A DNA stretch of 64,000 nucleotides, taken from the NCBI GenBank assembly GCA_046483985.1, contig JAWOCD010000075.1, positions 1 through 64,000 on the forward strand, given 5' to 3'. Source of the stretch: Promethearchaeia archaeon. Its GTDB lineage: Archaea > Asgardarchaeota > Lokiarchaeia > Sigyniarchaeales > SOKP01. Below, piece after piece: positions 41,927 through 50,225 of the stretch. Each line of letters starts with the position of its first letter. The stretch's first letter is position 1. Below the pieces are notes generated by a model. The model was not told where the DNA came from. It searched no databases and was given only the letters and a program-made list of their open reading frames with translations. The position numbers and the translations under genes are program-made.

Positions 41927-43741
41927 TTGCATATGACATCCGAGGAAAATGGAAAAGTAATAAGAGCACCTATTGCGTGCATTTTAGGTCATATAGACCA
42001 TGGCAAAACATCTCTTTTAGATTATATAAGGGGTACTGTGGTTCAAGAGAGAGAAGCAGCGGGCATCACTCAGCATATTGGAGCATCTTATTTTCCAATA
42101 GAAGATATTAAGCGCTTTTTGGAAAAATCTAATCCCGACTTTGCCGATAAGAAATTCGATTTACCAGGTATATTGATAGTAGATACTCCTGGACATGCTG
42201 CTTTTATGAATTTAAGAAAACGCGGAGGTGCTGTGGCAGATATCGCTATATTAGTAATCGATGTTATGGATGGCACTATGCCGATCACATGGGAATCTGT
42301 TCGAATATTAAGAGAAAGAGGGACTCCTTTTATTATTGCTGCAAATAAGATTGACCGAATCTCGGGATGGGAACCGAATAAAGATGCTGATTTTCCATTA
42401 ACATATAAGAAACAAAGGGATTTTGTAAAGGAATATTTAGAAGAAAAACTTTACAAGATCATAGGGGACTTTTATGAAGAGGGTTTTAAAGGCATTGATA
42501 GGTATGATAAAATTAAGGACTTCACTAAAAAGATCGCTATAGTTCCTACGAGTGCAAAGACTGGAGAGGGAATATCTACTTTATTAATGGTCTTACTTGG
42601 TCTGACCCAGCAATATCTTACAAAAAATTTGCAATTTTCTGAGGGCGCTGCAGAAGGGGTAGTCTTAGAGGTAAAAAAAGAGAGAGGCTATGGAAAAACG
42701 ATGGATGTTCTTATCTATAATGGAATTGTCCACCAAGGAGATGATTTTATTGTGGGCGGTTTGTCCCAGCCGATTAAATCACGGGTTCGGGCATTACTCG
42801 CTCCAAAGGCTTTGGATGAGATAAGGGATCCAAGAAAAAAATTTGAATCAAAAGAAATGATAAGCGCTGCAGCGGGGATTAAGATTTTAGCCCCAGATAT
42901 TGACGATGTAGTTGCCGGTTCTCCTTTTAAGGTAATCTCAGACCCAGAAGAGGAACGGAATGTTTATGATCAAATTGAAGAAGAAATAGAAAAAATTAAG
43001 ATCAAAACCAAAAAAGAAGGAGTAGTACTGAAAGCGGATACTTTAGGCTCTTTAGAAGCGTTAGAAAACCATTTTAGCCGAAATAATGTTTCCATCAGTA
43101 TTGCGGATGTGGGACCCATTAAGAAAGAGGATATTATTAATGCATCGATCGTTCGGAAATATGACCCGTTCTCCGCAGTTGTATTGGGTTTTAATGTCCC
43201 TATTTTGCCCGAAGCAGAAGAGCACGCCCGAGAATACAATATTAGAATATTTACTAATAATGTAATATATCGGTTGCTCGAAGATTATATTGAATATTCA
43301 GAACGAAGAAGAGCTGAAGAAACAGCGAAAAAATTAAGCGAACTGATTTTACCCGCAAAGCTCAAAATCTTCCCGGAATATATTTTCCGCAAATCTAACC
43401 CTGCTGTATTTGGTATAAGTGTTGAAGCTGGAACATTAGTTCCAAAAGACCCCTTGATAACCGATGATGGCAAAAAAGTAAAGAGGGTTCATGAGATTCA
43501 AGACAGAGGCCAAAACTTGGATAAGGCTGAAAAGGGAGATGATGTTGCGATATCGATGAGAGGGACAGAGATAGGAAGGGATATAGAGACCGATGATATA
43601 CTTTATGTAAGAGTTCCTGAATCGCACGTGAGACAGTTGTATCATAAGTTCTTAAATGAATTAACCTCGGATCAAAAAGAAGCATTAAAAGAATACACAA
43701 TGCTTATGAGAGAGATACGCCACCCATGGTGGGGCGTTTAA
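41927..43741 (+). CDS. infB: Translation initiation factor aIF5B (IF-2)
   Basis: GHIDHGKT, EAAGITQHIGA, DTPGH, NKID, KADTLGSLEAL; the start may be the ATG at 41933. Confidence 0.98.
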   Translation: MHMTSEENGKVIRAPIACILGHIDHGKTSLLDYIRGTVVQEREAAGITQHIGASYFPIEDIKRFLEKSNPDFADKKFDLPGILIVDTPGHAAFMNLRKRGGAVADIAILVIDVMDGTMPITWESVRILRERGTPFIIAANKIDRISGWEPNKDADFPLTYKKQRDFVKEYLEEKLYKIIGDFYEEGFKGIDRYDKIKDFTKKIAIVPTSAKTGEGISTLLMVLLGLTQQYLTKNLQFSEGAAEGVVLEVKKERGYGKTMDVLIYNGIVHQGDDFIVGGLSQPIKSRVRALLAPKALDEIRDPRKKFESKEMISAAAGIKILAPDIDDVVAGSPFKVISDPEEERNVYDQIEEEIEKIKIKTKKEGVVLKADTLGSLEALENHFSRNNVSISIADVGPIKKEDIINASIVRKYDPFSAVVLGFNVPILPEAEEHAREYNIRIFTNNVIYRLLEDYIEYSERRRAEETAKKLSELILPAKLKIFPEYIFRKSNPAVFGISVEAGTLVPKDPLITDDGKKVKRVHEIQDRGQNLDKAEKGDDVAISMRGTEIGRDIETDDILYVRVPESHVRQLYHKFLNELTSDQKEALKEYTMLMREIRHPWWGV

Positions 43742-43839
43742 TCTTATTTTTTTCTAAAATAAGACAAGTATCAGATATTTTAACCATAAAGCATTTTAAT
43801 TATTTATATTAATCTGCAATTTTAGAGCTTTGTTAATTC

Positions 43840-45300
43840 ATGAAAGACGTTGACAATATCTTCCGTAAAGTCCTAAAAAGAATTCGCCCTACTGAAAACG
43901 AGCTTAATTTAATAAATCGAATAGTTGAAGAGGTTAAAACGCTTCTCTCGGAAAAAGCAAGAGAATTAGATATAGTATATAAAAGTATCCAACCCCAAGG
44001 ATCAACTGGCATAAAACAAACCCAATTAAGAAATGATTTTGATATAGATCTTTTTATTGGTCTGGATTATGAACTCTATAACCAAGAAATTGAAGGTCTA
44101 AGTAAAAATAAACGAAAGGAGCAATTTAAATCTCTTTTTAAACAGTTTTGCAATAAGTGGATTATTCCAGCAATTTCTATTGACAAAATTAAAGATCCTC
44201 GGTTATTTTATGCTGAACATCCTTATGTAAAGGCAAAATATGAAGATCCAAGACAAAGTCAACAATATTTAGAATTAGATATAGTTCTTTATTTCGAGTT
44301 AGAGAAAGAATATATTAAAAAGAATGGACCCATTACCGCAGTAGATAGAACTCCATGGCATGGCAAATTTGTGAAGAATAATCTGACTGAAAGACAAAAA
44401 GATCATGTGAGACTTTTAAAGCAGTTCTTTAAAGCATGTCATAGCTATGGCGATAAAAGTGCGGTGGGAAGAGTGGGATTCATCGGATATAGTGCTGAAT
44501 TATTGATATATCATTATGGAGATATTCTCAATGTGTTTCAGCATTTTAAGGAACTTAAAATAAATCCTTTAGACAATTTTGAGAGGGATCCCTCGAAACT
44601 TAAAAATATTAAACGATTTCAAAATGACTACCTCATTATTATTGATCCTGTGGATAACCAGAGAAATGTAGCATCAGCCATCTCACCGAGAGCCTATAAA
44701 TATTGCAACCAACAAATTTTGGAATTTCTTCAAGCTCCTAATGAATCATATTTTCGAATTGAATCGATTCCTCCAATAGGTAAAGATAAAGATAAGACAG
44801 AGCAGTTATTCATAACTGAACTTGAAAATACAGATATGGAATATCACTACACCGAAAATCGGGATAAATTATATTCTCTGGGATCTTATATCAAAAATAT
44901 CGGAGAAAGAGAATTTACCCATGAAAAACGGTTTGGGACCATTATTTATGAACTTTATTTTGAATTAGAAAAAAAAAGATACTGCTTGGCATTCTATTGT
45001 GAGGATCCTTCAATTTCCCAAACCTATATTCGAAAGGGCCCCCCCAAGAAGAAAAAGCACCATGTAAAGAAATTTAAACAGAAAAATCCTAAAACATTTG
45101 AAAAAAATGGCTTTGTATGGACTGAAACTAAAAGAGAATACACTCTATTTAAAAATTTCTTGAATGACTATATTCCGAAAAAGTTACCTAACAATTTTAG
45201 AATAAAGAATATTTCTGGTGCTTCTCAGACTCAGAGTACTACTGGGAAAAAAACCCTTTATGTTTTAAAAAATATGATATTACCCTTTTTCTTGGACTAG
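43840..45300 (+). CDS. cca: CCA-adding enzyme (class I)
   Basis: QGS...T.L..DFDIDLF, YAEHPYV, AVDRTPWH, GF.GY..ELLI..YG, DPVD..RNVA. Confidence 0.93.
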   Translation: MKDVDNIFRKVLKRIRPTENELNLINRIVEEVKTLLSEKARELDIVYKSIQPQGSTGIKQTQLRNDFDIDLFIGLDYELYNQEIEGLSKNKRKEQFKSLFKQFCNKWIIPAISIDKIKDPRLFYAEHPYVKAKYEDPRQSQQYLELDIVLYFELEKEYIKKNGPITAVDRTPWHGKFVKNNLTERQKDHVRLLKQFFKACHSYGDKSAVGRVGFIGYSAELLIYHYGDILNVFQHFKELKINPLDNFERDPSKLKNIKRFQNDYLIIIDPVDNQRNVASAISPRAYKYCNQQILEFLQAPNESYFRIESIPPIGKDKDKTEQLFITELENTDMEYHYTENRDKLYSLGSYIKNIGEREFTHEKRFGTIIYELYFELEKKRYCLAFYCEDPSISQTYIRKGPPKKKKHHVKKFKQKNPKTFEKNGFVWTETKREYTLFKNFLNDYIPKKLPNNFRIKNISGASQTQSTTGKKTLYVLKNMILPFFLD

Positions 45301-47478: not shown

Positions 47479-47945
47479 AAAATATCATTTTTTTAACTTT
47501 TCTTTCTTCTTTGACTAAGTGTTATATTTTTTGTAAGGAGATAAAAATAAAATCACCTCTTTTCCTTCGTTCTCTAAAAAGGTAAACACGGCTATTTGCA
47601 CCATTTTTATAACAAGAAGTTTAAGGAACTCTCTGAATCTGGGAATAATCTCCTTAAGAAGGAGATTCTACTGGGTCAGTTGGAGACACAATTTTCGGGC
47701 GAAGATCGAATGGTTTTAAGAAGAAGTTAGAGTTTGATCATACAAAAAATATAACAATAGTCTCTTCTTTATTGAGATTTGGAAAACCCCTGATAAACAT
47801 AATAGAATATATTTTTCTTCTTAAGATTCTAATATAATGGGGATTTCTCGCCTATATTCGTAAAATTTTTATGATTTCCTATATTTTGATATATACTAAA
47901 GTATATTTTATATTCATGGAAAACACATTAAAGTGAAAATTTCAA

Positions 47946-50225
47946 ATGGTTAAGGTAAAAAATCCACAAGAAATCGCCGAAATGGTTACTGCTGGGTCAT
48001 ATAAGAAAAAACGTCTGTTTTCGATCGTTGCGCATATTGATTGCTGAATGAATGTCTCATTTAGCCAATAACATGGCAAAACGACGGCAACGGACTATTT
48101 AATGCGAAGAGCAGGGCTTATGCGTCCCGAAGATGCGGGAGAGCTCCAAATGACAGACTCAGATGAAGAAGAACAAGCAAGAGGGATTACGATCTTTACT
48201 TCCGTGGTGTTACTTGCGTTTAATGATCCACGGGAAGAAGAAGGGGTAGAACCTTATATTTTCCAAATAAACGATACACCGGGTCACATCTCATTTACTG
48301 GGGAAGTTTCCAGAGCACTTAGAAGCAGTGATGGAGCGTTGATCTTAGTTGACGCTCTTGAAGGAGTGATGACCCAAACAGAGACGAATATTAATCTTGC
48401 TGTTGGAGAGGAATTATGTAAACCTGTTTTATTTATTAATAAAGTTGATAGGTTAATCTCTGAAATCAAACTTTCACCTCAAGAAACATATGATAAAATT
48501 GATGAAATAACAAAACAAGTTAATGAATTGATTAGAAAAGTCAGACCTGAATGGTCAGATTGGGGAGTCGAATTTGCAGAAAATTCCGTTGCCATCGGTT
48601 CTGCAAAAGATGGATGGGGCTTCACTTATGAAATCCTAAAAGAGAACGATTATACACCTGTGAAAGTTTTTGAAAAATATGAGGAAGGAGATATCCAATG
48701 GTTAAGAGAAAATCTCCCGTTGGATGAACCGATGTTGAGAATGGTAGTTGATCATTTACCAGATCCAGTTACAGCCTCGAAATACAGGATACCTGAAATT
48801 TGGCAAGGGGATTTAGATTCTGAACTAGGGCAAGCATTACAGAAAAGTGATCCAAACGGGCCATTATATGGGATTATTTCCAAAATTTTCTTAGATCCTG
48901 CACAAAATTACCGAGCAACCTTAATAGGAAGGATATTTTCGGGTACAATGGACGAATCGGACACTTTATATCTGCTGAACAGTCGAAAGAAAAGTAGAAT
49001 AAAACGGTTAGGCGTAATGGAAATAACAGATATTTTAAATATCAAAGAAATACCAGCAGGGAATATTTTTGCAATGTATGGTCCGATGTGTCCATCCGGG
49101 GAAACTTTTGTGGATAACGTTGGGCTTGCTAAGGACAAAGATAATATTGATGAGATTCCTTCCTTTGAAAATATTAATTATGCGTGCAAAGCAGTAGTTT
49201 CTCGAAGCATTAAACCCAAAAATCCGCATGATATCGCAAAGTTAGGACAAGTGGTAAAGAAATGGTTAATGGCGGATCCAACCGCAGAGTTTACGATGGA
49301 CAAGGATTCTAAGGAGTTTATCCTTTCTGGAATTGATCCTCTGCAGATTGATATCCTTACCAAACGAATTAACAACCAAGTGGAGATCAATATCGGAGAG
49401 CCTATTATTGTATACAGAGAACGAATTACAAACAAAAGTGCCACGTTTCATACTAAATCTTCAAACGGTCATAACAGAATTCAACTGTATATTGAACCCT
49501 TAGATGAAAAGACTCTTGACCTTCTGGAGTCGGGAAAAATTACCGACTTAATGAACGAAGATGAAAGAGCCGAATTATTGAGAGACGTTGGATGGGACAA
49601 AAAAGAAGCAAAGAGAGTGGTAGATGTCTACAAGGGTAATCTCTTAGTAAACGCCACGAAGGGGTTACAAAGATTTGACCGAGTGAAAAGCTACTTATCT
49701 GGCGCTTTCCGTGATTGGTGTGAAAATTGTATTTTAGCGAAAGAACCTGCTTTAGGACTGCGTTTAGTATTTACGGATTTAACCATTCACGAGGACCCGG
49801 CACACACCGGGTATAATCAAATAGCAAGCATGAGTTATGCTGCTTTTTCCCTTGCAATGATGGATGCAGATCCACATCTTTATGAACCTATCCAGAAAAT
49901 TGATATTAAAACTCCCTCTGGCACAGATCCTGGTGTATTAGCCGTCATAAATAAGCATCGTGGAAGAGTTAATAATGTTGTACCCGATGGAGAATATGTC
50001 CGAATCAGCGGACAATTACCCGCCTCGGAAACCGTTGGTATTGCCGATGAAATTCGAGGATCTACTCAAGGACGTGCCTTTTTTGGATATGAATTTCTCG
50101 GATTTGAACGCGTTCCAGCCTCAATAGAGCCAGACTTGATCCTAGAAATTCGCAAGCGAAAAGGTCTTAAAGTCGAGCTTCCTGATGTTTCCTCATGGCA
50201 CCGATTTCTCTATAGAAAAACATAA
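47946..50225 (+). CDS. fusA: Elongation factor 2 family GTPase, intron-split: join(47946..48041,48072..50225), 749 aa
   Basis: Exon 1 MVKVKNPQEIAEMVTAGSYKKKRLFSIVAHID; exon 2 HGKTTATDYL...RGITI...DTPGH...NKVD; EF-2 domains IV/V; whether it is the main EF-2 or the Asgard paralogue is unresolved. Confidence 0.93.
48042..48071 (+). other. Predicted 30-nt bulge-helix-bulge (BHB) mRNA intron
   Basis: TGCTGAATGAATGTCTCATTTAGCCAATAA with in-frame TGA and TAA; 4-bp helix AUUG/CAAU, 3-nt bulges AUU and AAC, 9-bp inner stem; cutting after the 2nd nt of each bulge restores GAT-CAT. Confidence 0.9.

Follow-up and report, generated by a model that had tools for sequence, protein, structure and literature searches.

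A 30-nt bulge-helix-bulge insert in the G1 codons of an Asgard archaeal EF-2 gene, predicted to be spliced from the mRNA by tRNA-splicing enzymes

The DNA analyzed here (the window, 64,000 nt of contig JAWOCD010000075.1 from a Promethearchaeia archaeon) carries an EF-2 gene on its plus strand. The open reading frame called for this gene in the 64-kb window begins at 48102 and lacks the G1 motif. Read from an ATG at 47946, the frame passes through 32 codons to FSIVAHID, then through ten codons that include TGA and TAA, and continues in frame with HGKTT. The gene can be described as exon 1 (47946–48041, +; 32 codons ending with AHID, the first half of the G1/P-loop), a predicted 30-nt bulge-helix-bulge (BHB) intron with the two in-frame stops (48042–48071, +), and exon 2 (48072–50225, +; 717 codons and a stop), in which HGKTT lies ten codons upstream of the first ATG at 48102. 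Exons 1 and 2 share 69–75% and 76–80% aa identity, respectively, with intron-less orthologues. Deletion of 48042–48071 gives a stop-free EF-2 of 749 aa, and among all in-frame deletions tried round the site it is the only one that gives AHIDHGK, its neighbours yielding IEH, IDY or IDC. Retranslation confirmed the start, insert, stops and resumption point proposed in an earlier note on this DNA, as well as its 749-aa product and its observation that the called frame lacks G1 and that an upstream in-frame exon supplies FSIVAHID.

Genes for aIF5B and a CCA-adding enzyme lie upstream of EF-2 (41927–45300), and ribosomal protein genes do not flank it. A gene remnant was considered for the gap just upstream, but this gap contains a MITE-like element instead (47505–47770), with perfect 16-nt inverted arms (47520–47535 and 47741–47756) and an 8-bp flanking duplication. 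Eight other copies with 83–92% identity occur in the window genome, and no link between the element and the intron was seen. No homing endonuclease was found near EF-2, all PF14528 matches of the window genome being on other contigs, and no tRNA was found in the window. A promoter search at EF-2 gave no informative match with the model used, a sigma-70 model unsuited to archaea.

The window genome (4.06 Mb, 97% complete) encodes two EF-2 homologues, one of them a canonical aEF-2. The best NCBIfam match of exon 2 is TIGR00490, aEF-2 (E = 4.9e-175); exon 2 alone scores 583.6 against an equivalog cut-off of 738.45, with the joined protein outside this scoring. In domain IV the window copy has the loop HEDPAHTG (49788–49811, +), in which the His is kept and Arg is replaced by Thr, whereas the homologue on C59 has no HxDxxH loop. 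In Asgard archaea with two copies, the former combination marks the canonical aEF-2, and the loop-less copy is aEF-2p, for which translocation was judged unlikely (Narrowe 2018, PMC6143161). By these sequence marks the window gene is the canonical translocase aEF-2 and the C59 copy is of the aEF-2p type, and the marks suggest an organism of Lokiarchaeia type. As no dph2 was found in the window genome, it resembles the published Asgard aEF-2/aEF-2p pairs in having two homologues, an Arg-to-Thr change beside the diphthamide His and no dph2; no passage on an interrupted archaeal EF-2 gene was found in that study (Narrowe 2018, PMC6143161).

The insert is also present in contigs from DNA runs. A contig from run X1, possibly the source sample, spans 47945–48340 with one difference and no gap. 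A contig from run X4, which belongs to the same study as X1, spans 47973–48116 with 18 differences (~12% divergence) and likewise no gap, which implies a related organism with an insert of the same length at the site. The RNA runs X2 and X3 covered only small shares, and no contig from them reached the junction, which speaks neither for nor against splicing. Both exons are under purifying selection relative to four intron-less orthologues (pN/pS 0.20–0.22 for exon 1 and 0.18–0.21 for exon 2, with pS near saturation).

One could still suppose that the gene is a pseudogene or an assembly artefact, and that the C59 homologue translocates in its place or that a shortened protein is made from the ATG at 48102. 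The second homologue and the possible identity of X1 with the source sample leave some room for this, but the C59 copy is of the type considered unlikely to translocate, and neutral drift of exon 2, which the earlier note had raised as a possible outcome, is contradicted by a pN/pS of ~0.2 and the lack of any further lesion. HGKTT is conserved although it lies upstream of the ATG at 48102, the X4 contig bridges the site despite its divergence, and dozens of assemblies show an EF-2 gene interrupted in this way. We therefore regard this explanation as very improbable, and treat the locus as a genuine interrupted gene.

Every BHB element proposed in the earlier note is present at the coordinates it had named. 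The 5′ strand of the outer exon-exon helix (48028–48035, +) pairs as 48033–48035 with 48073–48075 and as 48028–48031 with 48076–48079, leaving G48032 bulged, with a pairing probability of ~0.7–0.8 for most pairs. The central helix consists of four Watson-Crick pairs (48036–48039 with 48066–48069) between two 3-nt bulges on opposite strands (48040–48042 and 48070–48072), and the predicted inner hairpin (48043–48065, +) has a 9-bp stem with one G-U pair (48043–48051 with 48057–48065) and a 5-nt loop (48052–48056). This is the canonical form of the motif, with helices on both flanks (inner 9 bp, outer 3 + 4 bp), the outer pairs being partly given by the codons. As the first three outer pairs are set by the His-Ile-Asp-His-Gly codons, they are not independent evidence for a BHB.

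We placed the cuts by the rule that EndA cleaves a 3-nt bulge just past its second base (PMC2738675). The predicted cuts fall between 48041 and 48042 in the 5′ element (48036–48042, +) and between 48071 and 48072 in the 3′ element (48066–48072, +), and the earlier claim that the structure-based and protein-based boundaries coincide holds, since the BHB cut is the sole deletion that restores AHIDHGK. Both helices were recreated in a fraction of 1.5e-5 of 200,000 shuffles of the insert. The strict BHB has a predicted free energy of −14.4 kcal/mol, which exceeds that of the predicted minimum by 0.7 kcal/mol. In the predicted ensemble the inner stem (~1.0) and the outer helix (~0.8) have high pairing probabilities, the central helix a probability of 0.14. 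In the folding model the BHB is a near-optimal, not a dominant, fold. A group I, group II or endonuclease-bearing intron was rejected, as the insert is only 30 nt long, has no match in Rfam and has no ribozyme core.

The window genome encodes an EndA (C32:38230–38829) above the family cut-off with the Tyr/His/Lys catalytic motifs, and two RtcB genes. A second EndA subunit was not found in it with the queries used, while most Asgard genomes have two subunits. Relaxed BHB motifs usually require a two-subunit EndA; the window insert has the canonical motif, though the window genome shows one EndA gene. This genome also has a tRNA-Pro intron of 29 nt, similar in size to the EF-2 insert. Only 22 tRNAs were called in this 97%-complete genome, several of them doubtful, which is consistent with heavily interrupted tRNA genes. 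Duplicated blocks were seen on C29 and C91.

We consider it highly probable that the insert is an EndA/RtcB-spliced mRNA intron of aEF-2, acting like the intron of cbf5 and unrelated to it. The EF-2 transcript would fold into the BHB, EndA would cleave after the second base of each bulge and RtcB would ligate the exons, freeing the 30-nt intron, which might be circularised. The spliced mRNA would encode the 749-aa translocase. On unspliced mRNA, translation would end after 33 residues, and the mRNA very probably depends on cleavage and ligation by the tRNA-splicing enzymes. Removal from the RNA at the same points by some other nuclease or ligase is improbable in our view. The finding of a single EndA gene might point that way, as might the uniform 28–34-nt design and conserved inner hairpin of the related inserts described below, which exceed the known needs of EndA, but the geometry is exactly that of an EndA substrate, 3-nt bulges included, in all scored cases, and the tRNA-Pro intron shows that an intron of similar size occurs in the same genome.

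Splicing by EndA and RtcB can also be examined through the relatives of the window gene. With the N-terminal 116 residues of an orthologue lacking the intron as query against 161 genomes of this class, many in-frame stops were seen. From these, 27 aEF-2 inserts were extracted in 26 genomes, all of them 30 nt long and located before or within codons 31 (n = 4), 33 (n = 1, the window genome only), 35 (n = 1), 62 (n = 2) and 64 (n = 19); a 28th, at codon 64, lies at a contig end. One aEF-2 (L061, G070) has two inserts, at codons 31 and 64. Carriers make up 27 of ~123 listed genomes of the family and none of the 25 listed outside it. Scored against an intron-less relative, the BHB cut was among the best protein-restoring cuts in all 27 and the sole best in 24, and no BHB was found in ordinary indels of more distant orthologues. 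Most of the aEF-2 inserts of the family have no good outer helix and are relaxed motifs, whereas the window insert is canonical. At codon 64, all 18 carriers have the synonymous codons that form the central helix, compared with 14 of 40 non-carriers, with kin not independent in these counts, and one stem position alternates between G-C and A-U.

The aEF-2p paralogue is interrupted as well. Three genomes (L032/G023, L033/G003 and L034/G015) have inserts of 31, 31 and 32 nt at the G1 lysine codon, all frameshifting; the BHB cut restores GHIDHGKTT and the stem changes among the three are two-sided. In G003 both paralogues are interrupted at the G1 lysine codon site. Two further contigs, L035 (G023) and L066 (G086), start at the aEF-2 G1 lysine codon, a known insert site, which could reflect mixed alleles breaking the assembly. 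The aEF-2p of L036 (G011) changes frame between residues ~207 and 233, where no BHB was found, and probably has an ordinary frameshift or error.

On a quick protein tree the carriers are scattered among the non-carriers, sister pairs included, so gains, losses or exchange recur. Such patchy presence among close relatives might suggest that the hairpin is excised from DNA in part of the population, or that intron-less alleles supply the protein, and loss of an AT-rich hairpin through replication is conceivable. We find this hardly credible, as the X1 and X4 contigs bridge the site gapless with no joined form listed (contigs do drop rare variants), a target-site duplication is absent, and exon-insert pairing with 3-nt bulges would serve no purpose in a DNA deletion. 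A regulatory on/off switch is less likely, because sister genomes differ in both presence and site of the insert, a pattern that favours tolerated gains.

The exact window site was searched for with a pattern for an insert between the G1 Asp and His codons, which required part of the central pairing and left the inner stem and one free position unconstrained. Matches were EF-2 genes in genomes labelled Woesearchaeota or Nanoarchaeota, in two labelled Methanosarcinales (apparently Woesearchaeota-like), and on 15 metagenome contigs. They comprise 15 distinct same-site inserts of 28–34 nt, all frame-breaking and with a BHB (L192, L194–L197, L200, L204 and L209; metagenome loci L176–L191 except L189), and are a small minority within that Woesearchaeota-type order. 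With the window insert included, all 64 central cells of the 16 distinct inserts are paired, and the free position is C-G in 11 and U-A in 5. The first inner cells are paired in 77 of 80 cases, compared with 36 of 85 in chance matches of the pattern outside EF-2. Loki and Woesearchaeota inserts alike often have AAG...CUU at the upper end of the inner stem, a shared design. Directly upstream of one intron-bearing Woesearchaeota-like EF-2 lies a gene for a 396-aa LAGLIDADG-domain protein (L197:5741–6931, minus strand).

Same-site insertions with compensatory stem changes, which the earlier note had looked to in Asgard EF-2 genes, were found in Woesearchaeota-type EF-2 (n = 15) but not in Asgard archaea, where no second insert with readable sequence at the exact site appeared among 400 genomes searched. 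The same-site covariation therefore comes from another phylum, and in part from a pattern that itself requires central pairing. Compared with Woesearchaeota and other Loki inserts, the window insert scores 8–14 of 30 (shuffled mean 8.9), no more than expected from end-anchored pairing and shuffles. Transfer of the insert from Woesearchaeota is unsupported, since similarity is at the level of shuffles and the flanking residues are of Loki type. Given this lack of similarity and the single Asgard case, it is simpler to assume that the insert was gained independently. Taken with the 27 aEF-2 and 3 paralogue inserts, the 15 Woesearchaeota-type inserts, in all of which the structure-derived and protein-derived cuts agree, support the splicing by EndA and RtcB that the earlier note had predicted.

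The lengths of these inserts also bear on decoding without RNA splicing, either by ribosome bypass as in hopping on T4 gene 60 or by stop recoding or read-through. A hairpin and a stop codon just past the take-off point would suit bypass, and stop recoding is reported for some Asgard lineages (PMC9723677). However, take-off and landing codons match in none of 27 inserts, the frame is shifted by inserts of 28, 31, 32 and 34 nt at the same site or in the paralogue, and read-through would have to pass both TGA and TAA and add 10 residues to G1. Bypass also leaves the conserved exon-insert pairing unexplained. We give this possibility very little weight and retain splicing of the mRNA.

Further inserts occur in the window genome itself. 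Two other genes have 30-nt BHB inserts of this design in conserved motifs, one for a UDP-sugar dehydrogenase, where the NAD-binding loop is interrupted (C45:48366–48395, +), and one for an AMP phosphorylase (C32:149428–149457, −). In a half-genome comparison with 1.6 Mb of a relative, the EF-2 insert was the only frame-breaking insertion of 15–75 nt recovered, and none of 68 frame-preserving insertions had a BHB motif. A junction-peptide scan against the same 1.6 Mb, of low sensitivity, gave the EF-2 insert and one weak match (0–1 for decoys). A homology-free genome scan for BHB and coding potential gave 11 matches compared with 6–15 for decoy geometries, and missed the EF-2 insert. Frame changes over a short stretch were seen in a deacetylase gene (C23:2068–2800, +) and a VIT1-like gene (C32:~49000–49100, +), for which the strict filter gave no BHB.

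Through the G1 codons the two exons can pair over 3–5 bp and close a loop of 7 nt, in which the junction falls between bases 6 and 7; we take this to be the geometry of the intron site at tRNA position 37/38. This ready-made stem-loop may explain the repeated use of the G1 site; the geometry fails for most other Loki insert sites. As for the origin, we would suggest, with less confidence than for splicing, a lineage-specific gain at G1 codons that already provided the exon-exon stem. The intron might be kept because imprecise loss within G1 would be lethal, and not for regulation.

In the papers found, endonuclease splicing of archaeal coding sequences is described as confirmed for cbf5 only, other cases being predicted (Yokobori 2009, PMC2738675), a statement repeated more recently with the addition of a BHB intron in the 5′ UTR of Haloferax volcanii HVO_1309 (Schwarz 2020, PMC7714728). 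The EF-2 insert shares several features with the cbf5 intron of Desulfurococcales and Sulfolobales (Watanabe 2002; Yokobori 2009, PMC2738675). Both are short BHB introns in coding sequence with a patchy distribution among relatives, both interrupt a motif that is crucial for catalysis (in cbf5 the codon of the catalytic Asp, in aEF-2 the G1 loop), and EndA cuts between bulge bases two and three in cbf5, as predicted for aEF-2. They differ in host gene and phylum, aEF-2 being an essential translation GTPase, so the insert is not a member of the cbf5 family. The cbf5 intron has one site, one inferred gain and mostly unconventional motifs, whereas EF-2 has five insert sites within one family of genomes, further genes of the window genome are interrupted, and EF-2 genes of another phylum have inserts at the very site of the window insert. 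Splicing of cbf5 is known from cDNA and cleavage, that of EF-2 is predicted from sequence.

In the case of the HVO_1309 intron the tRNA splicing endonuclease likewise acts on an mRNA, but the intron lies in an untranslated leader and leaves the reading frame intact (PMC7714728). The tRNA introns of Asgard archaea share the phylum, the BHB boundaries, repeated gains and an arrival route left open; that study deals with tRNA genes only, and the terms "mRNA", "cbf5" and "EF-2" are absent from its text (Goswami 2026, bioRxiv 10.64898/2026.10.13.758758). No published account of a BHB intron in EF-2 was found in the literature searched, which mostly excludes subscription journals.

One practical consequence is that gene callers truncate core markers such as EF-2 in these genomes. 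The window frame called from 48102 loses G1, and in carriers at codons 62 and 64 ~130 residues are missing from the called EF-2 genes.

We lean, by a narrow margin, towards a broader reading in which the stereotyped 28–34-nt BHB introns of Lokiarchaeia and Woesearchaeota form a class of mRNA introns that is spreading and that repeatedly lands in essential genes, at their best conserved motifs. The G1 codons of EF-2 would then have offered an anticodon-like proto-splice site, already in place and hit in each of the two phyla independently, and tRNA-type splicing would be a routine and essential step in the decoding of mRNA in some of the prokaryotes most closely related to eukaryotes. If the EF-2 intron is obligatory and one of many in this Asgard family, these introns would offer a tractable system for the gain and loss of short introns, a question left open for Asgard tRNAs, and mRNA splicing would be an essential, routine step in that family, before any spliceosome.
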